A DNA stretch of 64,000 bases from Escherichia phage vB_EcoM_EC001, in the sequence record MN445185.1; one strand, 5' to 3'. The notes beneath the pieces are model-generated. The model saw only the letters and a program-made list of their open reading frames with translations. It was not told the origin of the DNA and searched no databases. The position numbers and the translations under genes are program-made. Position 1 is the first letter of the stretch; each line of letters opens with the position of its first letter. Positions 2,350 through 61,549 of this stretch are shown here, in pieces.

Positions 2350-2865
2350 GTGAGCATGATAGCATCAGTTTTCAAACTGCTTCCATTCTTACAGATGCTG
2401 TGGGAAGCATTTAAACCGGGCGAGGGGGAGAAAGTAACACGAGCCGGGAAGATAGTGACACTAGTGATAGTGGCACTGGTCGCGTTCTCTGCATTTGTCT
2501 CATATGCCTATATTGTTCAATACCACACACTGGTTAGCGTCCAATCGCGTACTCAGTATCTGGAGATATCCTATAAGGAGCTAAAAGAGAAGTCCGATCA
2601 TGGCGAAGTGGAGAACAATAAGCTGTACGATCGTCTCTTCACATGCCTGGGTTCTCGATCGCCATATGATGGTACCAAATCTCCAACAGGGACAGGCACT
2701 GGGGCCGCGGTTCCGCCTGAAGAACTCAAGCCGGTAACACCACAGGCACCGTTAAATCCGTCTAGCCCGCCTGCCAAGAAACACCAGGCGGCTTCTCGCC
2801 CAGTGGGGTCGCAGGCGGCAAACGATTTCCGACAGGAGATTATCAAGACGCTTAATAATCCATGA
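2350..2865 (+). CDS. membrane-anchored protein (one TM helix, coiled-coil-like segment, Pro-rich C-terminus); possible i-spanin
   Basis: Hydrophobic segment KIVTLVIVALVAFSAFVSYAYIV; GTG at 2350 or ATG at 2356; SD-like site upstream; function is inference. Confidence 0.5.
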   Translation: MSMIASVFKLLPFLQMLWEAFKPGEGEKVTRAGKIVTLVIVALVAFSAFVSYAYIVQYHTLVSVQSRTQYLEISYKELKEKSDHGEVENNKLYDRLFTCLGSRSPYDGTKSPTGTGTGAAVPPEELKPVTPQAPLNPSSPPAKKHQAASRPVGSQAANDFRQEIIKTLNNP

Positions 2866-2874
2866 GGAGCATAC

Positions 2875-3354
2875 ATGAAGTTATTTTTGGTGGCGATACT
2901 GGTGCTATTGTTGACAGGATGCCCTGGGGTCATCCGTCACGTAGACCCAGATTACTCCTCAACCGGAGATTGGCCTTTTCGTCCTTTAGAACACCCACCA
3001 GTATATAACGGTGGGAACAGTCCTGAGGCGAAAAAGCTGGCAGGGAAAATGTTTGTTGCGGATGTGAACGCTTATGCTTATTACGTTTATCTGTACGCTA
3101 AGTCAGTAAACAACTATGCAGAAGCTAAAGGGTGGCACACCCCGATGACCGCACCGCTTTGTGAAGAGTTTATTCGCCCCACTCTTCATGGTATACCCTC
3201 CGGGATATATCTCGACCCTGGTTCTCGTAGCCCTCAAGACATTAGTCGTGATTTGTCACGACAGATTAAGTCTCTCATTCGCAGCTATCGCGAAGACAGA
3301 GAGTCTTTTAATCGTGCCTACGAACGGCACAAAAGTAGTTGCCTTGTGCAATGA
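2875..3354 (+). CDS. lipoprotein (159 aa); possible o-spanin or superinfection-exclusion lipoprotein
   Basis: N-terminus MKLFLVAILVLLLTGC is a signal peptide with lipobox L-T-G-C; GAGGAG SD 8 nt upstream. Confidence 0.6.
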   Translation: MKLFLVAILVLLLTGCPGVIRHVDPDYSSTGDWPFRPLEHPPVYNGGNSPEAKKLAGKMFVADVNAYAYYVYLYAKSVNNYAEAKGWHTPMTAPLCEEFIRPTLHGIPSGIYLDPGSRSPQDISRDLSRQIKSLIRSYREDRESFNRAYERHKSSCLVQ

Positions 3355-3358
3355 AAAC

Positions 3359-3397
3359 TCCCTCTTACCTTCGGGTAAGAGGGGATTTCCTTTTTTA
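3359..3397 (+). terminator. rho-independent terminator
   Basis: Stem TCCCTCTTACC/GGTAAGAGGGGA with TTCG loop followed by T-tract. Confidence 0.75.
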
Positions 3398-4162: not shown

Positions 4163-5676
4163 TGAAAGACGTCGACGTAGCGGTTATTTATACCGATGGT
4201 AGTCATACTGAGTCCCCGAAAGGTTCGGGGGCTGGTATTCATGGTTATTTATTCAACAACGGAGATTTGGAAGACAGTCAGGCTTATAGCCATCCGGGTG
4301 TTTCAGAACGGATTACCACTGTTGGATACAAAAAAGTGCCGCAGGATGTGAAGTGTCCGGAGTTGCCGGACACCGTTCAATTTGTCGACGCCGTTATTCC
4401 CGTTCCGAAAGAGTTCTACTCAGATGTGGGCGAGTTAATCGCCTTCATCACGTTGTTTGAGAACGCACCCTTCCGCGCGAAGAACTATATTATCTACGTG
4501 GATGCCAGTTATGTTGTAAACACTTTTAACGAGTGGATAGACGGCTGGCATAAACGTGGTTGGGTTCGTGCTGACGGTACTCCGCTGGCGAACAAAGAAC
4601 TTATTGTTCGTATCTGGGAAATCAAACAGCAGATGAAAAAAGAAGGACGGGGTGTTAAGGTTATCAAAATCAAAGGACACTCCGGCCACTACGGTAACGA
4701 CCGGGCGGACGAATTGGCTAGAAAAGGTTCAGCTATCACAGCGACCAACGACGGCGTTCCATATCAGCCGTACTGGTCGAAGGATGAGTTGCCTGCATCC
4801 GCGGAACCCGAGCCCATCGCCGCTGGGATGAACCTTGCGGCATATCCGCCGATTTGTACGGTTAAATATTGCTATCCGTTGGTGAACGAGGACCATCCTA
4901 CTGTAAAAGTGAAAGATGAAACTTTCTATTACATGTTTGGTGGCAACCATGCAAAGAACAAGGACGACTTGGTGTTTATTGGGAAAATGATTCCTGATGC
5001 ACACTTTTCCGTAATGTTCACTAAACAACCGTGGGATAACATCTACACGATTGTAAACAACCACGCCGCCCTGGCATGGAAAGATACACCGAAGATGCGG
5101 CAGTATGATCCAATCGGCGTTGTTAACAATGAGTTCGTTAAACGTAAGAAGTTCGTTGACGTGGCAGGTGATGGATTACCAGCAGACAAGATGCATTTCA
5201 GTGGAGAAGATTCCAACGTCTGGTTCTTTGAAGACCTGGCCATCTCCAGAATGCTTCGCCCACCCTTATTGTCGTACCGTGCGCTGGATATTCGTGACGA
5301 ACTCGCTACAACGTTGCGTGATGTTCTGCATCAGGAAAAGGGTTATGTCTTAAACGATATTACCGACTTGCTATTCGACGACAAAGGTAAACCTGTCAAG
5401 GAATACTACCGCAGCGTCGATAAGTCAATAACGTTAAAGATTGACTTTCCGATGGGTAAACGACCTGTCTCGGTTATTTTGACGCGTGGTATCGATATTC
5501 CATCGCGTACGGAAATCAACCGTATTAAAGAACCGGAAGGCCGTTATTACATCGCGGTGTGTCGTCCTGAAAAATACTACATCCGTTACTTCTTAATCTA
5601 TATCGGTAAAGAGTATCATGGGTTGTGGTGTGCGTATTACGCAAACCGTCGCATACTGCGAGAAGAAGAGGTGTAA
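4162..5676 (+). CDS. RNase HI-like domain fused to ~280-aa C-terminal domain of unknown function
   Basis: TDGS, GELIAFI, DASYVV, WIDGWHKRGW and KGHSGHYGNDRADELARKG match the E. coli RNase HI catalytic motifs (from memory); start overlaps upstream stop (TAATG). Confidence 0.7.
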   Translation: MKDVDVAVIYTDGSHTESPKGSGAGIHGYLFNNGDLEDSQAYSHPGVSERITTVGYKKVPQDVKCPELPDTVQFVDAVIPVPKEFYSDVGELIAFITLFENAPFRAKNYIIYVDASYVVNTFNEWIDGWHKRGWVRADGTPLANKELIVRIWEIKQQMKKEGRGVKVIKIKGHSGHYGNDRADELARKGSAITATNDGVPYQPYWSKDELPASAEPEPIAAGMNLAAYPPICTVKYCYPLVNEDHPTVKVKDETFYYMFGGNHAKNKDDLVFIGKMIPDAHFSVMFTKQPWDNIYTIVNNHAALAWKDTPKMRQYDPIGVVNNEFVKRKKFVDVAGDGLPADKMHFSGEDSNVWFFEDLAISRMLRPPLLSYRALDIRDELATTLRDVLHQEKGYVLNDITDLLFDDKGKPVKEYYRSVDKSITLKIDFPMGKRPVSVILTRGIDIPSRTEINRIKEPEGRYYIAVCRPEKYYIRYFLIYIGKEYHGLWCAYYANRRILREEEV

Positions 5677-6420: not shown

Positions 6421-6442
6421 TGAGATAGATATTATCTACAGG
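6421..6442 (+). promoter_or_regulatory. candidate phage promoter, AT-rich motif family A (TGAGATAGATATTATCTACAGG)
   Basis: Intergenic, ~30 nt upstream of the 6472 start; shares CTSAGAYAKATATTAYCT core with sites at 14950 and 46607. Confidence 0.4.
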
Positions 6443-10090: not shown

Positions 10091-10099
10091 AATAAAGCC

Positions 10100-10150
10100 T
10101 ACCCACTCCCCTTATGGGAGTGGGTAATGCTTATTTTTTTTTTATTTTTT
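10100..10150. terminator. bidirectional rho-independent terminator
   Basis: Stem TACCCACTCCC/GGGAGTGGGTA with long T-tract and upstream A-tract; stem nearly identical to the terminator at 281-318. Confidence 0.8.
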
Positions 10151-11310: not shown

Positions 11311-12804
11311 ATGGCAGGTCCAGCTAAACAAGTCATGGGTGAAGTGATTCGCCCTCGTTTTAACGTATATACCATCATGGACCACGCTCTCGGTAACTAC
11401 GAGCGCGGGGAAGATGGTTTGTACTACCTCAACGGTGGTTTTGCCCACATCATGGGCTTCGCAGGTCGTGGGAACACCTTTAAGTCTACCTTATTAGACT
11501 TCTGCATTTTCATGATTCTGCAACGTTATAATGCGGCCTGGGGATCGAAATACGATACCGAAGTTACGGCAGCATTAAGTCGTCTGGAAACGGGGTATAT
11601 CTCCGCTGCGAAAGCAAACGGATTAGAAGTATCACCAACAGGCGGCGTGCTGGACCTGATCCACGAAGGTCGTTACAACATGGTTGGCTCGGATATCATG
11701 GCGGGTGAGGAGTATTACTCTGCTTATATCCGTGACGAAGTCGAAAAACGTTTCAAAGAGTACATGGCTGGTAAGGCACGCGAAACACCGTTCCCGGACC
11801 CAATCCGTCGCTCTGCGAAAAAGATTCTCGACCCGTGGTTGTACTCGATTGACTCCCTGTCCGAATGGCACACCTCTTCTCTGGAAGAGAAACATGCCAA
11901 ATCAGAAGTCGGTGATTCTGAACAGAACATCCTGAACGCCCACGATGCGTTGCAGAAATCGAACATGATGAGCCGTTGGCCGTCTGCGTTTGCGCGTGGT
12001 GGTTTCTATATGGGCTTCGTTGCTCAGTTGGCCGACGATGCGGGTAAAGCAATGGCGGCAGGTGGCCGTGGTGGACCGAAGGCGAACGGTAAACTGTTGG
12101 ACGATGCAGGCGATGATCTGAAGTTTGCGGGTATCCCGCGCCGTCAGTTGTCGTTCTTAACTAACTCCCTGCTGGTTGCAACCAAGTCTGGTGAGTTGAA
12201 GCAGGATCAGACTTACAACGCGAAGACCGGTGTAAACGAAGAGAAATACCCGACTGCGCGTTCGAAAGCAATGAATGCTTCGGTGAACGACCTGAAAGAA
12301 ATTGTTTTCACGCAGTACCGTGCGAAGGGTGGTCACACAGGCGTTAAGTTCAAAATGGTCTTCTCGCAGGAGATGGGTCTGCTTTATCACCTCTCTCTGT
12401 GGCATTACCTGAGCGACACACTGAAAGATGAATGGGGCTACAAACGTAGTGGTGCTAACTATACCCTCGATTTGCTACCTGGTACATCTTTCATGCGTAC
12501 CACGATTCGCGACATGTGTGACAGCAACCCGCGTTTGCGCCGTGCGTTGGAAATCACCGCCGCATTAGCGTACATGCAGAATAACTACCACCGACTGGAA
12601 ATGAAATACCATCTCTCACCGGCGGAGCTTTATAAAGTTATCGACGAAAAGTGGGACTGGAATGAAATTCTGGACAATACAGTGGAATACTGGATGTTCA
12701 AGGATCAGGAAGTCAAAGGTGGTAAGCGTTGCTTAACAGCAATGTCATTACTGGCGATGGCCGTGGATGGTCTGGAACCTAAGTTCTTGACTAAGAAGAA
12801 ATAA
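11311..12804 (+). CDS. putative RecA/UvsX-like recombinase ATPase (497 aa)
   Basis: GGFAHIMGFAGRGNTFKSTLLDFCIFMILQRY resembles the T4 UvsX P-loop region GGMQSGLLILAGPSKSFKSNFGLT..YMRQY (from memory), followed by KYDTE versus YDSE; no canonical GK[ST] and no clear Walker B. Confidence 0.35.
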   Translation: MAGPAKQVMGEVIRPRFNVYTIMDHALGNYERGEDGLYYLNGGFAHIMGFAGRGNTFKSTLLDFCIFMILQRYNAAWGSKYDTEVTAALSRLETGYISAAKANGLEVSPTGGVLDLIHEGRYNMVGSDIMAGEEYYSAYIRDEVEKRFKEYMAGKARETPFPDPIRRSAKKILDPWLYSIDSLSEWHTSSLEEKHAKSEVGDSEQNILNAHDALQKSNMMSRWPSAFARGGFYMGFVAQLADDAGKAMAAGGRGGPKANGKLLDDAGDDLKFAGIPRRQLSFLTNSLLVATKSGELKQDQTYNAKTGVNEEKYPTARSKAMNASVNDLKEIVFTQYRAKGGHTGVKFKMVFSQEMGLLYHLSLWHYLSDTLKDEWGYKRSGANYTLDLLPGTSFMRTTIRDMCDSNPRLRRALEITAALAYMQNNYHRLEMKYHLSPAELYKVIDEKWDWNEILDNTVEYWMFKDQEVKGGKRCLTAMSLLAMAVDGLEPKFLTKKK

Positions 12805-12807
12805 GCA

Positions 12808-12834
12808 TGGGCGGGGCAACCCGCCTGTTTTTTC
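12808..12834 (+). terminator. rho-independent terminator
   Basis: GGCGGGG-CAA-CCCGCC hairpin followed by TGTTTTTT. Confidence 0.7.
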
Positions 12835-12849
12835 CCCTGAGGATTAGCG

Positions 12850-13125
12850 ATGCGTTATCAGAAAGATATTGTAGAGCGTCTGTGTCTGGGTCTCGCTGGT
12901 ATTAGCCAGGAACTTAGCACCGCGTTCCATAACGAGTTCTCAGCACCGCGACATGCACTGTCTGAATTTAGTCATCAGGTAAATGCCCATTACGGCAACC
13001 TGATTAATGATAAACCGAAGGTTGATGCGGTCGGTGTGCCTGAACACAATGAAGATATCCCGTACTGGATTGAAGACCTGGAACGTGTGGTTCTTCCAGT
13101 GCTCCGTGAGAGGATGAAAAAATGA
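12850..13125 (+). CDS. hypothetical protein (91 aa)
   Basis: ORF with SD GAGGA upstream; coupled to next gene. Confidence 0.5.
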   Translation: MRYQKDIVERLCLGLAGISQELSTAFHNEFSAPRHALSEFSHQVNAHYGNLINDKPKVDAVGVPEHNEDIPYWIEDLERVVLPVLRERMKK

Positions 13126-13790
13126 GATTAGACCCGGCACGGCGAAAAAAAGCAGAAGCTTATGCTTTACAGTTACTGAACTTAGTTGACCCGACCGGGA
13201 TTAACGCGGAAGCTGCCAAGCGCGCTTTCTCACGAATGTCTGACGAAGAGTTCAATCGTCTGCGCGAAGGGTTGCCTGTTTACAACCCAACTGGCGGCAA
13301 GGTCAAAATTGACCATATGCGCAATATTAAAATTTGCGAAGCGATGGGACTGAGCTTGTGTCAGCGCCTGTGGCTCACGGAACCGAAAACCGGTATCCTA
13401 CAACGTACCCGTTACCCCCATTTAGTCTTCCGCCTGCCTGCACGTCGCCAGACGCAGATGCAAGAGAAGAAAATGGCGGTGGCGAAGAACGATAAAGTCC
13501 GCGATAAACTCTCAGGTCAGGTAGTAGGTCCTTCCAAAGCTTCGGGTGTTTCGTTTCCAGAAGCCTACATCATGTACTCGGATGGACACGACTCAACGCT
13601 CCAGGAGTTCCTGTGGGCGCGTGGTGGTAACGATACGTTACAACGTGCGTTCTATCAATCGCTACGGCAAACCGGTAAAGGTCGCATCAACCTGGAAGGG
13701 GCTGAGCGTACCAGTTCAAAAGCGCCGCGTACATGGTCTTCGTACTTTAAAGCAATGCACATCGGTAACAACTTAGGACGCCCGGAATGA
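13122..13790 (+). CDS. hypothetical protein (222 aa)
   Basis: ATGA overlap with upstream stop. Confidence 0.55.
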   Translation: MRLDPARRKKAEAYALQLLNLVDPTGINAEAAKRAFSRMSDEEFNRLREGLPVYNPTGGKVKIDHMRNIKICEAMGLSLCQRLWLTEPKTGILQRTRYPHLVFRLPARRQTQMQEKKMAVAKNDKVRDKLSGQVVGPSKASGVSFPEAYIMYSDGHDSTLQEFLWARGGNDTLQRAFYQSLRQTGKGRINLEGAERTSSKAPRTWSSYFKAMHIGNNLGRPE

Positions 13791-14515
13791 GATTAGGACG
13801 CCGTTTCTTAGTCGATATCGACACAATCTTCGATACACGAATTGGTTGGGCGAAAGTGTTGCAGCCTGATGTATTAGAGAAGCTTGATTTAGAAGTGTAT
13901 CGGATGCGGTTCACAGATGCGTGGGCCGAAGTGGTAGGAATTCAGGACTGGAATAAAAAGTTCGCGGAGCGTGATAAACGCGCGTTGCAGAACGCGCAGC
14001 CAACAGAAATGTTGCTTACGCTAAAGAACGAAGTACAGGCAATGTTAATGACGATACAGATGCACGCTCCTATCGAGCGACCTGTCTTAACGTTTAACCT
14101 GTGGCCATACGCTGATCTCGATGATGAAGAACGTCATGCGTTTTTGGAAGAACTGCGTTACTACTATAACGAAGTGCAAGTAGACGTCGTTGTTATTCCT
14201 CACAGCGATCTTACACCAGGGCGACTTGCTTCGGCGTGGGACGGTTGGATAATGTACGATTGGTATCCGTGGATAGAACAACACGCGAACCATTTCCAGA
14301 AACCGATTCCGGATTTTACGATTACCCGACCGAGTATGCTGACCAGCGAATTAACGGAAGAAGCAATCGCGCAAATAAAAAGAGATAAGGTGAACCCCTT
14401 TAAGGAGTCCACCCGTTTTCTTGCTCAATACGTCGGTACTGACGTAAAGGACACTGCGCTGTTTAGTCTTCGTCGTCATCAGCAGGACGACGACTCGCAA
14501 ACGCAGACGCCATGA
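13787..14515 (+). CDS. hypothetical protein (242 aa)
   Basis: ATGA overlap with upstream stop; 3' end overlaps the convergent ORF 14463..14933. Confidence 0.55.
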   Translation: MRLGRRFLVDIDTIFDTRIGWAKVLQPDVLEKLDLEVYRMRFTDAWAEVVGIQDWNKKFAERDKRALQNAQPTEMLLTLKNEVQAMLMTIQMHAPIERPVLTFNLWPYADLDDEERHAFLEELRYYYNEVQVDVVVIPHSDLTPGRLASAWDGWIMYDWYPWIEQHANHFQKPIPDFTITRPSMLTSELTEEAIAQIKRDKVNPFKESTRFLAQYVGTDVKDTALFSLRRHQQDDDSQTQTP

Positions 14516-14933
14516 TCTGGTCAACGTCAATCTTTTCGCCTACTGGTGCCAACTCACCTTCTTTCGGAGGCCGTACTGCGGCAATCTGTGGGACGGTGGG
14601 TTGGTATCCGTTATTTAAATCTTCTTCATCGTCGTGACGTTTGATACCAACGCCTGCACGAGTCATTAAGAAGCCGTTTAAACTGTTGGCCAAATCTTGA
14701 GTCGCCTCAGCGCCTTTCTCAGCAGCTTTAATTTTCCGCTTCGTCATGACCTGTTTGTCGATGCCGTTGATTAGGCGTTCGATTCGGTCGACGGCTTTTA
14801 AGTCTTTGTGTACTTCACCGTCGTTCACCATATCTGTGACGAGCTTAACGCGTAGCTGTTGTGTTTGGCGGAGAAGCGAATCTTCGTTGTCCACATCTCC
14901 GTCGAACGCTTGGTATTTCACTTCTTCGCTCAT
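14463..14933 (-). CDS. hypothetical acidic protein (156 aa) with acidic C-terminal tail (ADDDED)
   Basis: ORF on minus strand; overlaps the 3' end of the + gene by ~50 nt, so one of the two ends may be mis-set. Confidence 0.45.
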   Translation of the reverse strand: MSEEVKYQAFDGDVDNEDSLLRQTQQLRVKLVTDMVNDGEVHKDLKAVDRIERLINGIDKQVMTKRKIKAAEKGAEATQDLANSLNGFLMTRAGVGIKRHDDEEDLNNGYQPTVPQIAAVRPPKEGELAPVGEKIDVDQIMASAFASRRPADDDED

Positions 14934-14949
14934 GGGATAACCTCATCTC

Positions 14950-14979
14950 AAAAAGAACTCAGACAGATATTATCTATCC
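14950..14979 (+). promoter_or_regulatory. candidate phage promoter, AT-rich motif family A (AAAAAGAACTCAGACAGATATTATCTATCC)
   Basis: In divergent intergenic region, ~30 nt upstream of the 15010 start; near-identical to the 46607 site. Confidence 0.45.
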
Positions 14980-15009
14980 GAGACAACATCTCATAATAGG
15001 ATAACACCT

Positions 15010-15540
15010 ATGCTTTTTAAATGGCTTTCAACACTCCTGCGTCGTAAGGCTGTAGAAGCTCGCAGACGCTCTTTGGAGGCTGAGTTTCATAAGAATACCC
15101 ATAACACCCTGCACAGAGTGATGGTGGGCTTAGAACTCATTACAGAGCCTCTGGAATATAATGGGAAAGAATACCTTCCTTTTTCATTACGTGGACAACT
15201 CGAATTACGTATTCGAGATTTTGACACGTTGGTGGAGCGATTGGAATTCTTCATTTCTGAGTATAACCGTGTATCCAGTAGCAACATTCCCAATCAACGT
15301 TGGTTAGAGTTGCCTGAGGCAATCGATAGAAAAGGAGAGAGTTCAGAACCACGATGGCTTGATCATTATTTCGGTGCATCCGATCCTGAAGTCGCGCGCG
15401 ATAAACTGCGCACAGTCTTCGCTATGTTAGAACTGTATCAGCGTGCATTTGATAAACAAACACCCGAACAGGATACGCTGTTTAATCAAACCGCACATAT
15501 CTTCCGCGAGTTAGAAGTGATAGTGGAACACTATCTCTAA
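15010..15540 (+). CDS. hypothetical protein (176 aa)
   Basis: First gene of a 5-gene + operon. Confidence 0.55.
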   Translation: MLFKWLSTLLRRKAVEARRRSLEAEFHKNTHNTLHRVMVGLELITEPLEYNGKEYLPFSLRGQLELRIRDFDTLVERLEFFISEYNRVSSSNIPNQRWLELPEAIDRKGESSEPRWLDHYFGASDPEVARDKLRTVFAMLELYQRAFDKQTPEQDTLFNQTAHIFRELEVIVEHYL

Positions 15541-15573
15541 CTTTTAATCTATTCCCTTGTAACAAGGTGATGT

Positions 15574-16452
15574 ATGGATGATGAGAAAAAGCCGCCGCTG
15601 AATAGCACACGCGAGCAAATTTGGCACGGTACGCCACCGGCGTCAGATTCCAGCTACCCGTTAAGGAAAGCTTATTGGAATCTGGTTAAGTTGATGGGTA
15701 TTAGCGACGGGATATGGAAAGACCTTATCCGTCAACATGTCAACGACCCGGAGTATCTGAAACAGTTTCGTGACAGCAAACTGACCACGATGACCGACCG
15801 CGTTAACCGGCTGAACACCTCACTTACGGGTGGTTCGGTACGTAACCTGACAGTCGATTTTACGTGGAAACGTTTCATCGAGGGATTAGTTATCCTGGAG
15901 ATGCAAACGCTAACAGTCACCCTGCTGACTAAGCGGGGAAGCTTTGACACGAAGTGTTTTGTATTCGACAGTACGTTTGTGCGTGAGGACTTCATTAAGA
16001 ACTTACGTAATGAGAACAGGAAGAAGCGTAAAGAGCGTTTCGAGCATCCCGCATCTTACGACGTTAACGAGTATGTCGCGAACATCGACCACACTATCGA
16101 ACATGTGATGAAGCACATTCTCCTGCGTTTAATCTACAAAGTTATTCGTGGGTATAAAATCGATGGTGATAAACTGGAACGGTGGACGACGAACTACGTC
16201 AACAACCCTAAGTTGTGCCCAGGCACATCATCCAAACGTGGGGACAGACGAAACAACATGAAACAGGCGATGCGTCACACCGAGGCAATCACCTGGCGTT
16301 GGTTTCTAATAATCTTACAAGCGCTGGACGTACGTGAGTTCGAAATCACTTTCAAAGTTCGCCATCGTAGTGGTAGAGAATATGAGGTCAGCGACAACGT
16401 TCCGTTAGCGACGTATAGATTCTGGAGTTCCAATGAAACTGAACAACCTTGA
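15574..16452 (+). CDS. hypothetical protein (292 aa)
   Basis: Long ORF. Confidence 0.6.
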   Translation: MDDEKKPPLNSTREQIWHGTPPASDSSYPLRKAYWNLVKLMGISDGIWKDLIRQHVNDPEYLKQFRDSKLTTMTDRVNRLNTSLTGGSVRNLTVDFTWKRFIEGLVILEMQTLTVTLLTKRGSFDTKCFVFDSTFVREDFIKNLRNENRKKRKERFEHPASYDVNEYVANIDHTIEHVMKHILLRLIYKVIRGYKIDGDKLERWTTNYVNNPKLCPGTSSKRGDRRNNMKQAMRHTEAITWRWFLIILQALDVREFEITFKVRHRSGREYEVSDNVPLATYRFWSSNETEQP

Positions 16453-17707
16453 TGGGATTACCAACCAGATAAGCAACACAACGGGCGCAATAGAGAACAA
16501 AGTTAACGATGTTCAAAACCGTGTCCAGTCAACGATTGGTAATGCCGAGCGCGGTATTGAAAGTGCTCAAAATTTGTACAATAACGTAACCGCCAAAGCA
16601 GGGGAAACTTTCGACAAGATCTCCAACATTGGCAACACGATAAGTGAGAAATTTGGTAACGTGTTCGGGGGTGGCGACCAAGTCACGGTAGGTGGTAAAA
16701 AGGCAGCAGGTTCAGCGGCTTCCGGAGTATCGCCGCCACAACGTGTGCCTACTTTTGCTTCCAACACGAAAGAAGCGCTGCCAGTTATCGATCCACAGAA
16801 GCGCGATGTGTCCGAACCCTTTCAGAAGGTAAACCAGGAAGGGAAAACTGCACTGAGCTATCTCTCACCGGGCGGCGCAGGTAGTCTGTTAAGTAAGGGA
16901 TGGGATACACTGACTGATCTTCGCGATAGCGCTTTAAGCGCGGTCGGGACAGATTATGCGTCAGTGAAAGCTCGCCTGGAGTCCACGATGAACATCGCGG
17001 GACAGCTTGCCAAACTGCCGGGTGAGGTACAGCGTGAAATCGGTAACTACGTCGATATGGCCAATAGCGCCAAGTGGCAAGTCACCGCACTGATTGACGA
17101 TGTTACGCACACGTTTGATAGCTTTAAGGACCTGGACGACTTCTTGTCTATCGACGGGATCATTGATAGCTTTACGGGCGGGAGTGGGAATTTCTCCTCG
17201 CTGGATATCAACACCTCGTCTGCATTGATATACGGTATGTCCACAAAGCTCAATCAATACGGTCTGCCGAATCGCATCGATCCGATGATTCAGGCTATCA
17301 CCGATCCTATTGCACAACAAGCGTTGTACGGCGAACTGATGATACAGGCTGCGGCGTCGGGTAATCTCAATTCTGTTGAGTATTACTTGCCTAAACTACA
17401 GCCAGGCCAAGGTGCTGAGATTGCAGATACTGTTATTCAGAATCTTCTGATGAACCTTAACGTTGAGCCGGGGGTGGGTTACAGCACCTACGGTCAGCGA
17501 CTGCTGACGTTGTTTAAAGCGCTTAATCCAAACTGGGATATCTCTAAAACGAATCCTGGAATGGTTGAGCTTAAGCTTTACACATACGCCAACAGTAATG
17601 CGATTCAAGCACTCCTGACCACCGAGAAACGTCCGTACGTTATCGCCGGTGGTAGTGTCCAATATCAGTCTGCCAGTACGCTGGTGCAGAGCTATTTCGC
17701 CTTGTAA
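16433..17707 (+). CDS. hypothetical Asn/Gly/Ser-rich protein (424 aa)
   Basis: Long ORF; 20-nt overlap with upstream gene, SD TGGAG. Confidence 0.6.
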   Translation: MKLNNLDGITNQISNTTGAIENKVNDVQNRVQSTIGNAERGIESAQNLYNNVTAKAGETFDKISNIGNTISEKFGNVFGGGDQVTVGGKKAAGSAASGVSPPQRVPTFASNTKEALPVIDPQKRDVSEPFQKVNQEGKTALSYLSPGGAGSLLSKGWDTLTDLRDSALSAVGTDYASVKARLESTMNIAGQLAKLPGEVQREIGNYVDMANSAKWQVTALIDDVTHTFDSFKDLDDFLSIDGIIDSFTGGSGNFSSLDINTSSALIYGMSTKLNQYGLPNRIDPMIQAITDPIAQQALYGELMIQAAASGNLNSVEYYLPKLQPGQGAEIADTVIQNLLMNLNVEPGVGYSTYGQRLLTLFKALNPNWDISKTNPGMVELKLYTYANSNAIQALLTTEKRPYVIAGGSVQYQSASTLVQSYFAL

Positions 17708-17716
17708 GGTACCTCT

Positions 17717-18568
17717 ATGTCGAAAGATGAAGGTAAGTTTTTGCGTAGTGCGTTGGAACGTCTACGTGTCGATGGTGCATCGGTGGATGCTTTGGCGGCT
17801 GCTTTTGGGTTTACGTTGCCCGCCTCGGTAGAAGCCACATATCCTGTTTTACGTCCCATCCTACCACCAGAAGAAAAGGAAGCCTTTGTACGCTATTTAC
17901 TGCGTATGGGTTACCAGAGTACCTTGGTGGATATCACGCCGTCTACAGACGGTCTGAATCACTTCAACATCTATTCGCAGGGGCGAACTGAGATAGGTCG
18001 GATGGCGAGTAACTTCTATGCTCGCCCTGGTGAGTATTTTGTTACCCCCCACGGACCTTTCCGGACGCTCGAAGGTTATTATCATTACCTGCGTATTCTG
18101 GATTACTTAATGCGTGAAATTGATAACCGCACTTTGGTGATGGAATTTGATATCATGCGACAGGCAGTGAACACCTGGCCTGATATTGAGAAGTTGCGTG
18201 CACTAGATGGCACCGACTGTATCCGGCTAGGTCGTAATCTGAAAGCGGAAATCTACGGAGGAACCAGTTATAAGCCCGGTTCATTTACCCCGGTTACAGA
18301 AAGCCGTTTTATCCATGCGCTGGTAAATAAACTCTTTATACTGTCGGTCGACGGGACATCGTTAGGTAATGTATTTGCAGAGATTCTGCGAGCACGTATC
18401 CCGCTTAAGCATTATTACATGATGCAAGGGCGTAAGATATTCCCAGCACACTGGGACTGGCTACCAAATCTGATTGAGATGATAGCTGAACATATCGATC
18501 CTGAGGACAGTACGTTTGATCGAACCGAACTTTTGAAGAAACTAGGAATCGATGATGGGACTATTTGA
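17717..18568 (+). CDS. hypothetical protein (283 aa)
   Basis: Long ORF. Confidence 0.6.
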   Translation: MSKDEGKFLRSALERLRVDGASVDALAAAFGFTLPASVEATYPVLRPILPPEEKEAFVRYLLRMGYQSTLVDITPSTDGLNHFNIYSQGRTEIGRMASNFYARPGEYFVTPHGPFRTLEGYYHYLRILDYLMREIDNRTLVMEFDIMRQAVNTWPDIEKLRALDGTDCIRLGRNLKAEIYGGTSYKPGSFTPVTESRFIHALVNKLFILSVDGTSLGNVFAEILRARIPLKHYYMMQGRKIFPAHWDWLPNLIEMIAEHIDPEDSTFDRTELLKKLGIDDGTI

Positions 18569-19214
18569 TATTCTCAAAAACTTAGACGAGCAGCAGGAAA
18601 AAGAAGTCATTACTGTTGCGCGTGAGTCCATCTCTACGGAGAAGGAACGTGAGTATTGCATGTGGGTTAAGCCCACTGAAGAAGGTTGGCAATGGCTGTT
18701 TGGTCAGACAGGCGAAACCTTCCTGGATGTCATTATGCCGGTCCTTAACGGCAAACGTCGTGTGCGGTTGTCCACCGATAAAACTGCGGTCTTAACGTTA
18801 AAACGACAAGCATCTGATGGTCGTATCGAAGAGAACTCGGATATCGGGTTTGCCTCGGGTCTGACCTTCTACGAAGATGGCAATCTTGCACATCTCGTGC
18901 GTCGTATCAAACTCGAACCAGGTGAACTGGCAGAGCAAGGTGCGAAGCATTGGGATATCGACTTGTTCTTTAAACTGGCAGGTCACCCAGTTATCGAATC
19001 GCAGGCAGGTTTCGAAGACCTTGTCAACGAACTGCGCGACTCCACGACATTCGGCGAGTGGGTAAAAGTCGAACTGGAAGTTGAGCGATTTGAGCTGACG
19101 TCTATCAAGGACGTATTGCCGTTTGCAGTAGAAGACGCTATTCCAGGCAACCCGTCGGATGCGGAGTCCCAGTTAGTTATTTCGAACTACTGGGATAATG
19201 AAACCCGCATCTAA
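18552..19214 (+). CDS. hypothetical protein (220 aa)
   Basis: Long ORF overlapping upstream stop. Confidence 0.6.
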   Translation: MMGLFDILKNLDEQQEKEVITVARESISTEKEREYCMWVKPTEEGWQWLFGQTGETFLDVIMPVLNGKRRVRLSTDKTAVLTLKRQASDGRIEENSDIGFASGLTFYEDGNLAHLVRRIKLEPGELAEQGAKHWDIDLFFKLAGHPVIESQAGFEDLVNELRDSTTFGEWVKVELEVERFELTSIKDVLPFAVEDAIPGNPSDAESQLVISNYWDNETRI

Positions 19215-19218
19215 GTCG

Positions 19219-19255
19219 TGCCCTCTCCTTCGGGAGAGGGTATCTTTATTTTTTA
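19219..19255 (+). terminator. rho-independent terminator
   Basis: CCCTCTCC-TTCG-GGAGAGGG hairpin plus T-tract. Confidence 0.8.
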
Positions 19256-19272
19256 TCTTAAGGAGTATGTAA

Positions 19273-19635
19273 ATGCAAATCGGCTTCTTCTTTAATCGTC
19301 ACGGAATCGTGTTTGTTTGTGGTGTTCCGGATAGTGACGGGAGACGTGTACGCACGTTAGAACTCGACGAAACATCTATGGTCGAGTGGAAAGAGAAACT
19401 TGCTCCCTTCGCAGAAGGTAAGTTTCAACTGCTGCAGCTCTACACGCAAGCTGCATCACCACGCGTTGCTTTCTCCCGACTTGGAGACGGCGAAGACACC
19501 ACACATCTGGTTATCTTCAGTGGGCAGCCTGGTCGTGTATTGAGCGAATTATTGATGGGATTCAATCCGCCTAGCAAGCCCAGGATGAATACGTACAATG
19601 TGCACGACAGTAGCCAAATTCTTATTCTTCGATAA
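19273..19635 (+). CDS. hypothetical protein (120 aa)
   Basis: ORF with SD AAGGAG upstream. Confidence 0.5.
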   Translation: MQIGFFFNRHGIVFVCGVPDSDGRRVRTLELDETSMVEWKEKLAPFAEGKFQLLQLYTQAASPRVAFSRLGDGEDTTHLVIFSGQPGRVLSELLMGFNPPSKPRMNTYNVHDSSQILILR

Positions 19636-24253: not shown

Positions 24254-24290
24254 TTAGGGTGTCCATATGGACACCCTACTTATTTTTTTG
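24254..24290 (+). terminator. rho-independent terminator
   Basis: AGGGTGTCC-ATAT-GGACACCCT hairpin plus T-tract. Confidence 0.8.
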
Positions 24291-25646: not shown

Positions 25647-25702
25647 AAAATAAAAGCAAACGAGTACCCCGTTAGGGGTACTCGCATTACTTATTTTTTT
25701 TG
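25645..25702. terminator. bidirectional rho-independent terminator
   Basis: GAGTACCCC-GTTA-GGGGTACTC hairpin flanked by A-tract and T-tract, between convergent operons. Confidence 0.8.
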
Positions 25703-47566: not shown

Positions 47567-48238
47567 ATGCAGGGCACTGAACTCAACAAACTTTGGGAAA
47601 AACTGGTTCGTCAATTCCGCGACTTCTATCGTTATACCGATAGTGCGCATCGCATGGATCACATCAACTCAGTTAAATCAAATGCAATTCGTATCGCGTA
47701 TATGCTTGGGCAAACCGAACACCTGAAGCTGATACTGATTGCGGTGGCAGCTCATGATATCTTCTCTACCAAAGAAGACCGTGCGTCTCACCACATCAAA
47801 GGGTATAGCTGGATACTGGATAACAAACCAGTGCTCAAACGTAAGTATAAACTTACCGATGATGAATGTTTGACGATTGCCCATGCAGTCTTAGAACACC
47901 GCAGTTCTCACAAAGGGAACTACAACGGGATTGTCTCTGAGATAGTTGCCGCAGCTGACCGTGGTATACCGTCTGTAGATGACGTGAGCAATTACATGCA
48001 CCGTTCTTATCTGTTTGCCCGTGAGCAGGGTAAAAGTAAAGGTGATGCAAAATTCCATGCCGTTGGTCATGTCCAACAGAAGTTCGGACGCAACGGTGTT
48101 AGTAATGTCCCTAGTTGGTACGGTACGCTCTTCGCAGAGCGCATTCTGGAACGCAGGGATTTCGTGGAGCAGCTAGATATTAGCTATTTCACAGATACCA
48201 TTATCGACGACCTCGAAGCTCGTCTTTCACACGATTAA
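47567..48238 (+). CDS. HD-domain phosphohydrolase, putative
   Basis: AHRMDH..(30 aa)..IAVAAHDIFS fits the H..HD metal-binding signature. Confidence 0.5.
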   Translation: MQGTELNKLWEKLVRQFRDFYRYTDSAHRMDHINSVKSNAIRIAYMLGQTEHLKLILIAVAAHDIFSTKEDRASHHIKGYSWILDNKPVLKRKYKLTDDECLTIAHAVLEHRSSHKGNYNGIVSEIVAAADRGIPSVDDVSNYMHRSYLFAREQGKSKGDAKFHAVGHVQQKFGRNGVSNVPSWYGTLFAERILERRDFVEQLDISYFTDTIIDDLEARLSHD

Positions 48239-49555: not shown

Positions 49556-49604
49556 AACGTACCTCTCTCCAAATGGAGAGAGGTAACGCTTGTTTTTTTT
49601 TTGT
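49546..49604. terminator. bidirectional rho-independent terminator
   Basis: CCTCTCTCC-AAAT-GGAGAGAGG hairpin with long T-tract and upstream A-tract, between convergent genes. Confidence 0.8.
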
Positions 49605-60073: not shown

Positions 60074-60131
60074 AAAAAATACGACGTTGCCACCTCTCCG
60101 AAACTGGAGAGGTGGCACTTTATTTTATTTC
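60074..60131. terminator. bidirectional rho-independent terminator
   Basis: GCCACCTCTCC-GAAACT-GGAGAGGTGGC hairpin with A-tract upstream and T-tract downstream. Confidence 0.8.
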
Positions 60132-61501: not shown

Positions 61502-61525
61502 GGCGCTAAACCTCTAAAAATTTAC

Positions 61526-61549
61526 GGATATATGTTATCATACTGAGAG
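61526..61549 (-). promoter_or_regulatory. candidate promoter for the minus-strand gene (inverted family A-like AT-rich motif)
   Basis: Minus-strand reading CTCAGTATGATAACATATATCC resembles CTCAGACAGATATTATCTATCC at 14950; lies upstream of the 61501 start. Confidence 0.3.

Follow-up and report, generated by a model that had tools for sequence, protein, structure and literature searches.

A conserved tail-to-tail overlap of the gp219 and gp220 genes in SPN3US-like jumbo phages, with a probable nested-gene transcription model

Regulation by convergent transcription is exemplified by the pR-pL interference of coliphage 186 and by the Listeria 'excludon'. Overlaps between convergent genes account for about 7% of prokaryotic gene overlaps; it is in the convergent orientation only that long overlaps are sometimes real, and most of them are conserved in close species only (PMC2478687). 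The codon arrangement termed 'phase 1' is reported to be the commonest one for convergent overlaps outside the 4-nt type (bioRxiv 10.1101/2025.11.07.687268). The present study compares with such systems a 53-nt overlap between the 3' ends of two jumbo phage genes, gp219 and gp220.

The window, which is the whole stretch of 64,000 nucleotides analysed from Escherichia phage vB_EcoM_EC001 (MN445185.1), belongs to an SPN3US-like jumbo phage, and over the gp219/gp220 region it shares 99% identity with Salmonella phage SPN3US and about 30 other Seoulvirus genomes. The forward gene, the gp219 homologue, is an ORF of 242 aa on the plus strand (13787..14515) with its TGA stop at 14513-14515. The reverse gene, the gp220 homologue, is an ORF of 156 aa on the minus strand (14463..14933), and its TAA stop runs from 14465 down to 14463. 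These two convergent ORFs have their 3'-terminal coding sequence in common. An earlier note on this DNA had reported that the convergent genes overlap by about 50 nt at 14463-14515; the ORF list confirms the coordinates exactly and sets the length of the dual-coding overlap on both strands at 53 nt, both stops included. It holds residues F226-P242 of the forward protein, which ends in ...HQQDDDSQTQTP (longer form ...LRRHQQDDDSQTQTP), and residues I140-D156 of the reverse protein, which ends in ...ASRRPADDDED. The overlap is already in public annotation and is ordinary biology: the SPN3US record has both CDSs with the identical overlap (NC_027402 gp047/gp046; JN641803 SPN3US_0219/SPN3US_0220; ACQ60_gp047/ACQ60_gp046), the SPFM4 record also annotates both with the 53-nt overlap, and in the phiEaH2 record the reverse gene is left without annotation. 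The upstream neighbour (13122..13790; phrog_3233) is the C-terminal beta fragment of the virion RNA polymerase, named gp218 in PMC5105663. Roughly mapped, the window comprises 60 genes; most lie on the plus strand, interspersed with lone minus-strand genes, of which gp220 is one, set in a plus-strand block.

The forward protein matches phrog_3328 (E 3e-85), and tblastn found homologues of its gene in 165 phage records, out to phiKZ gp147. SPN3US gp219 is listed as the homologue of phiKZ ORF147 and is essential, as seen with the amber mutant am30, Q91stop (PMC5105663). In phiKZ, phiKZ147 is an uncharacterised core gene and its knock-down lowers the levels of ChmA (bioRxiv 10.1101/2024.07.31.605949). 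The forward gene is the homologue of this essential Chimalliviridae core gene. The presumed operon around gp220 includes the core gene as well as a virion RNA polymerase subunit. The AlphaFold2 model of the forward protein (pLDDT 85.6, pTM 0.85) is confident up to about residue 228, and residues 232-242 fall below 50. The conserved core of the family ends at (L/Y)F(S/C/N), and because phiKZ gp147, Moabite and the Vibrio phage reach their stop 4-7 residues past this motif, the tail of 15-18 residues in the SPN3US clade was inferred to be a lineage-specific extension. Within Seoulvirus itself the position of the forward stop shifts, giving overlaps of 53, 47 and 35 nt, so that the extreme forward tail is weakly constrained; SNUABM29 is without the last 6 forward residues. 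The invariants of the forward family are D16 and R18. Assignment of the forward protein to the HAD-superfamily phosphatases was considered and rejected: Foldseek against the PDB gave only a weak resemblance (best E 4.5e-3, TM 0.36-0.46), and within HAD motif I, DxDx(T/V), which reads DIDT in the window, Caitlin-type phages and Moabite have C or S for the first Asp and CR5/Phobos have S for the second, so the nucleophile Asp is not invariant. A Pfam search with six neighbouring proteins, the forward protein included, gave no match, and sequence searches of the PDB with profiles of the forward and reverse families gave nothing meaningful.

The reverse protein matches phrog_5894 (E 7e-61). Its gene has tblastn homologues in 72 records from Seoul-, Erskine-, Machina-, Wellington- and Derbicusvirus at 39-87% identity, which places homologues in at least 5 genera with E down to 1e-25; in the Serratia Moabite group tblastn matched the N-terminal half only. 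Small convergent genes at the equivalent position in the Vibrio phage and in Ralstonia RP12 have 21-22% identity to the reverse gene, and phiKZ is without a small reverse gene. The AlphaFold2 model has a helical hairpin over residues 17-93, followed after a disordered linker by a short helix (137-146) and a tail (148-156) that is acidic and disordered. A literature search found no mention of gp220, no transcript or C-terminal peptide data for gp219/gp220 and no SPN3US transcriptome, and the supplements of two SPN3US proteomics papers had no gp219/gp220 entries. By its homologues gp220 is a real gene, and it is its conservation that speaks for its expression. Upstream of the reverse gene are a conserved RBS and a promoter-like motif. 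The latter is the conserved non-coding motif AGATAATATCTGTCTGAGTTCTTTTT on the minus strand at 14950..14975 (read 14975->14950), 17-42 nt upstream of the reverse ATG, which is a candidate promoter or leader element and is near-invariant across genera in which the proteins are about 50% identical. A related motif, GATAAYATMTRTCYG, has 6 matches in the window against 0.97 expected. Another sequence, GATATNNNNTATC, was rejected as a promoter motif as its 2 matches are too few. The late promoters of phiKZ-type phages consist of a TATG motif only, and their early promoters are phage-specific AT-rich elements (PMC7598289).

The earlier note had proposed a comparison with related genomes. The search for related loci was run with a 10-sequence alignment, and overlaps were measured from stop to stop on annotated or tblastn-anchored coordinates. 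An overlap of 35-56 nt was found in 25 related genomes, always with a length of 2 mod 3. It is 53 nt in the window/SPN3US, SNUABM11, ChrisDB and SNUABM9, 47 nt in STsAS and the uncultivated contigs L027-L029 and L035, 35 nt in SNUABM29, 56 nt in Asesino, Stratton, phiEaH2, L026, Caitlin, SNUABM4 and L032, and 50 nt in Huxley, SNUABM6, SNUABM10, L030 and Wellington. Three further genomes have an overlap of 20-23 nt with the codon phase unchanged (23 nt in CR5 and Phobos, 20 nt in Vibrio pVp-JHP1101). In Ralstonia RP12 the overlap is 4 nt, and in Moabite there is a gap of 35 nt with a perfect 9-bp hairpin inside. Every overlap of at least 20 nt is 2 mod 3 in length, so that codon positions pair 1:1, 2:3 and 3:2, which is phase 1. 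The overlap and its codon phase are kept across at least 4 genera. In the long-overlap clade the forward stop (TGA/TAA) is formed by conserved Ile-Met codons of the reverse gene (ATC/ATT ATG), and the reverse stop (TTA/CTA on the plus strand) lies within the conserved LFS/YSI codons of the forward gene. Among the 6 convergent junctions of the window, gp219/gp220 is the only overlapping one, and the overlap recurs in orthologous pairs; it is more than chance.

It is quite probable that the locus represents a genuine, old tail-to-tail overlap of two real jumbo-phage genes, to which a nested-gene transcription model applies. The structured cores of the two proteins would be encoded about 31 nt apart, and each gene would therefore read across the spacer into the tail of the other. 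The run-on tail of the forward gene would end at the TGA or TAA supplied by the Ile-Met codons of the reverse gene. After both tails had arisen, the arrangement would have been locked by dual coding, and no dedicated function of the overlap would be needed.

The transcription side of this reading comes from the distribution of terminators. At the other 5 convergent junctions of the window the genes are separated by gaps of 50-66 nt, and of 225 nt in one case, and each of these junctions has a bidirectional intrinsic terminator made of an A-tract, a perfect GC hairpin of 8-12 bp and 8-10 T (about 10100-10127, 19218-19243, 25660-25685, 49560-49585 and 60088-60117). Two of the five have z values of -5.8 and -6.4. 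A strict scan for a hairpin plus U-tract, covering the whole 64 kb on both strands, gave 21 strand-sites at 13 loci, and no bidirectional terminator (GC hairpin with A-tract and T-tract) was found by it at 14463-14515. Of the convergent junctions of the window, that of gp219/gp220 alone has no bidirectional terminator between its genes. The sites of the strict scan are intergenic and nearly all of them lie just past a gene end, with the exception of two on the minus strand, one at 14388-14414, the sole match inside a CDS, and the other at 14958-14982 in the leader of the reverse gene. A canonical hairpin with T-tract at 12807..12828 bounds the plus-strand block upstream, the next canonical plus-strand terminator downstream is the one at 19218..19243, and the scan of the window found no strict plus-strand terminator between 12828 and 19218. 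Similarly, in 27/27 relatives a plus-strand terminator was absent within 1.5-2.2 kb after the forward stop. An Rfam search of 12700-15200 at E<=1 gave two sub-threshold chance matches elsewhere and none in the overlap or the hairpins.

The strict-scan match inside gp219 is a 12-bp hairpin on the minus strand (14388..14414, read 14414->14388), a candidate terminator or 3'-end structure of the reverse mRNA. It lies 49 nt beyond the gp220 stop, over the forward codons K201-R210, and is directly followed by the U-rich tract UAUCUCUUUUUAUUU (14373..14387, minus strand). A stable hairpin with an immediate U-tract downstream of the gp220 stop has the sequence features of an intrinsic terminator. The hairpin folds with -17.9 kcal/mol (z -4.18) on the minus strand and with -10.2 kcal/mol (z -2.15) on the plus strand, where it is weaker because several pairs are G-U. 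A hairpin at the matching position was observed in STsAS/SNUABM29, Asesino, Caitlin-type Machinavirus, L032, Wellington and SNUABM11, two of its pairs switching between CG and GC. In Huxley-type phages, Stratton and L027-29 this hairpin is degraded, and only Seoulvirus, L032 and Wellingtonvirus have the U-tract, which Erskine- and Machinavirus lack. Over the alignment, 69% of the hairpin cells are paired against 63% in shuffles (0/500), and slid controls reach 30-48%; the covariation score is 0.236 against 0.165 in shuffles (0/500). Double-change pairs number 5 against 4.3 in shuffles (198/500) and a second conservative measure gives 186/500, neither being significant, and RNAalifold returned no consensus structure for this alignment. 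It is credible that the embedded hairpin serves gp220 of Seoulvirus as a terminator or 3'-end structure, which is short of a proven conserved RNA.

The transcription model as a whole is deduced from the sequence. It would place gp220, inverted and on its own, inside a plus-strand transcription unit of about 12.85-19.24 kb. The gene has a conserved promoter-like motif of its own, AGATAATATCTGTCTGAGTTCTTTTT, and its transcript probably starts downstream of it; in Seoulvirus the mRNA probably ends at the hairpin and U-tract within forward codons 197-210. Plus-strand transcripts probably read antisense through all of gp220, and if so, the resulting RNAs would be complementary over at least about 140 nt and not just 53. 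Since there is no terminator at the junction and the candidate minus-strand terminator lies within gp219, the gp219 and gp220 transcripts probably overlap far beyond 53 nt. The suggestion of the earlier note that transcripts are antisense to each other here thus holds as probable. It understated the extent, since the plus strand is free of terminators from 12828 to 19218 and the only candidate on the minus strand is about 50-90 nt past the reverse stop.

As a rival explanation, the overlap could have been kept for mutual control of the two convergent transcripts, through antisense pairing or transcriptional interference; plus-strand read-through could, for instance, silence gp220, or transcription of gp220 could attenuate gp219 and the vRNAP beta gene. 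The junction has no bidirectional terminator, unlike the 5 other junctions, and this absence is kept in 27 relatives. Moreover, gp220 is a lone inverted gene with a highly conserved promoter-like motif of its own, and mRNA duplexes are documented for convergent genes of yeast with short spacing (PMC6993858). Against this, the gene pair of Moabite is parted with a strong hairpin and phiKZ is without the reverse gene, so the core gene can function without this arrangement; further, an embedded minus-strand terminator in Seoulvirus would limit antisense transcription and not exploit it. Maintenance of the overlap for mutual regulation is, on this evidence, rather unlikely. A bolder version, which we hold to be unlikely, would make gp220 a deliberately nested antisense gene that is gated by read-through of the surrounding plus-strand operon, the missing junction terminator being essential to the design; in Seoulvirus the embedded terminator would shield the operon genes from gp220 transcription. 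If true, gp220 would give nucleus-forming jumbo phages a conserved antisense timing switch.

An RNA structure within the overlap itself could be another explanation. The overlap contains the dyad TCGTCGTC-N8-GACGACGA (14470..14493, both strands), over which both protein tails read RR..DDD. In most relatives its core is CGTCC-N3..12-GGACG, giving Arg-Pro...Asp on either strand, and Erskinevirus has other short hairpins at this position (CGAAG-TCTG-CTTCG; CTTCGGCGT...ACGCCGAAG). The GC-rich dyad could be a conserved bidirectional RNA hairpin, acting as a terminator without U-tract or as a 3' stabiliser, with the peptide tails as its by-product. That most long-overlap genomes have the dyad, its spacer being 3-12 nt long, and that Erskinevirus has different hairpins at the equivalent place, would fit such a role; a single dyad would also account for the conserved Arg-Pro and Asp of both tails, and in Moabite it is a strong hairpin without U-tracts that stands between the two homologous genes. 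However, the window dyad folds with -16.6/-18.0 kcal/mol at a z of about -1.8/-1.9, which is only marginally better than shuffles, in several relatives it ranks unremarkably among local windows, and the MFE folds vary from phage to phage. The core pairs are invariant, hence they give no covariation evidence. The dyad is generated automatically by the Asp runs of both tails because in this phase GAC (Asp) reads CGT (Arg) on the opposite strand. There is no U-tract beside it on either side, and the genome's real terminators look quite different. The forward stop lies 20 nt downstream of the hairpin, so termination there would leave the forward mRNA without a stop. As the main explanation, a terminator at the overlap dyad was rejected on these grounds (weak z, missing U-tract, differing folds and the lost stop), and the wider proposal of a conserved RNA hairpin with the tails as by-product, retained as a minor rival, is decidedly unlikely.

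Constraint within the overlap was examined by aligning 19 genomes of the long-overlap clade codon by codon. The synonymous test asks how often genome pairs that share an amino acid also share its codon, compared with an amino-acid-specific baseline, for which the stretches of both genes outside the overlap were used. In the overlap, synonymous-codon identity is 0.77 against 0.47 expected for the forward gene (ratio 1.66) and 0.75 against 0.48 for the reverse gene (ratio 1.58). Equal-length contiguous blocks outside the overlap matched these ratios in 0/210 forward and 0/132 reverse cases, the maxima being 1.04 and 1.32. All 19 genomes (19/19) encode reverse Ala156 as GCG, for which the baseline is 0.38. 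In the codon before it, the residue varies among S/T/A/V and the third base is G in 17/19 genomes, by which the forward Pro is kept. Selection in the overlap acts on both frames or on a nucleic-acid signal that coincides with them; part of the excess synonymous conservation could stem from such an element and not from the forward tail being selected. As AlphaFold2 predicts both tails to be unstructured, dual coding would be largely confined to disordered C-terminal regions of both proteins. The earlier note had also raised the possibility that one stop is mis-set by an alternative frame. This was rejected, as both ORFs are real genes with both frames conserved at synonymous sites, stop codons are not a choice of annotation, gp219 is essential and gp220 has homologues down to about 39% identity. 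That one ORF, or its last ~17 codons, is untranslated and the coding overlap an annotation or frame artefact is hardly believable: many long convergent overlaps are indeed 3'-extension artefacts (Pallejà et al. 2008, PMC2478687), the sequence of the forward tail is poorly kept, the tail being predicted as disordered and shorter in SNUABM29 and STsAS, and phiEaH2 lacks the reverse annotation, but both genes are conserved across genera, one being essential, both frames are open in one phase in about 30 independently sequenced genomes, and the reverse-gene synonymous sites, the Ala156 GCG and the preceding third-base G, are specifically conserved within the overlap.

As a long convergent overlap that is real and deeply conserved, the gp219/gp220 pair can serve as a positive control where annotation rules treat long overlaps as errors. 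Dual coding is tolerated in it within disordered tails, in the commonest phase and with one stop made by conserved codons of the other gene. For those working on SPN3US, the junction gives a place to seek antisense transcription beside an essential core gene of the phiKZ147 family.

When set beside known convergent overlaps, the pair has every defining feature of the conserved ones, and its conservation is unusually deep. Like the conserved convergent overlapping pairs of Rogozin et al. 2002 (as cited in PMC2478687) and of Pallejà et al. 2008, these are real genes on opposite strands with common 3' ends in several species, and an origin by 3'-end extension, the standard model for convergent overlapping pairs (PMC2478687), would apply here likewise. 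The difference is that this overlap spans at least 4 genera at about 50% protein identity and lies in a genome which has a terminator at every other convergent junction of the window. In common with the bidirectional-terminator junctions, a plus-strand gene meets a lone minus-strand gene and a GC-rich dyad is found at the meeting point; unlike them, gp219/gp220 has no intergenic gap and no A- or T-tracts, its stem is weaker with an 8-nt loop, and a one-directional hairpin plus U-tract is displaced into the forward CDS. As in coliphage 186 pR-pL, the Listeria excludon and the yeast duplexes (PMC6993858), the RNAs are predicted to be complementary over at least 100 nt, and the likeness to these cis-antisense systems is architectural only. 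What is distinctive of gp219/gp220 is the conserved absence of a terminator at the junction, together with a terminator-like hairpin displaced into the coding sequence of an essential gene.

A dyad at window positions 14470-14493 is read in equivalent frames from either strand, and because of this gp219 and the lone minus-strand gene gp220 (14463-14933), which overlap tail to tail, carry mirror-image motifs at the ends of two unrelated proteins, ...RRHQQDDD... in the gp219 tail and ...RRPADDDED in that of gp220. Relatives have Arg-Pro...Asp in the tails of both proteins. In the phiEaH2 record (JX316028; L005 2180-3248) the reverse gene was left unannotated and a 5'-extended plus-strand CDS (locus 2355..3248) was instead placed antisense across it, while in Caitlin (L013 1669-2091) an extra annotated ORF, CAITLIN_234, lies antisense to this same gene. 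The two cases are probably annotation errors. In Serratia phage Moabite 35 nt lie between the two orthologous genes (L015, between locus 2983 and 3019), and this spacer contains a perfect hairpin, GGTGGAGGG-aagtta-CCCTCCACC, which is in the top 0.1% among local folding energies and has no U-tract on either side. SPFM6/10/14 and others (LR535905, LR535908 and LR535912 among them) are near-identical genomes. They matched the region only in about 40 short pieces (81% coverage) and their proteins gave only fragmentary matches, and such piecemeal matching of both DNA and protein suggests low-quality, indel-rich assemblies.

The forward gene, gp219 (13787-14515), is an essential core gene. In a Foldseek comparison the AF2 model of its product (pLDDT 85.6) resembled HAD-type 5'(3')-deoxyribonucleotidases only weakly (E 4.5e-3, TM 0.36-0.46). 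Its N-terminus, DIDT, resembles HAD motif I; neither of these Asp residues is conserved across the gp219 family, in which the invariant residues are D16 and R18.

Upstream of gp220 lies a non-coding motif, AGATAATATCTGTCTGAGTTCTTTTT (14950-14982, minus strand), which is near-invariant between genera whose proteins share about 50% identity. A near-palindrome related to it, GATAAYATMTRTCYG, occurs 6 times in the 64-kb window against 0.97 expected, and one of these matches is upstream of a second lone minus-strand gene; besides 14950-14982, motif sites are at 61525-61539 (minus strand), 6422-6436, 5035-5049 and 48170-48184. This type of motif may represent a phage promoter class; it also folds into a hairpin of 11 bp, and a U-tract follows.

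At 19215-19439 convergent genes stand 225 nt apart with a terminator at the left end of the gap, which may contain a small unannotated gene or other element. Bidirectional intrinsic terminators (about 10099-10127, 19218-19243, 25660-25685, 49560-49585 and 60088-60117) occur in the window at essentially all convergent junctions except gp219/gp220 and at several operon ends, and more of the same textbook form are at 280-305, 3359-3384 and 24255-24278. Each consists of an A-tract, a perfectly paired GC hairpin of 10-13 bp capped by a tetraloop, and T8-10. Their presence at these junctions and operon ends suggests that canonical hairpin and U-tract termination is in use throughout this jumbo phage.
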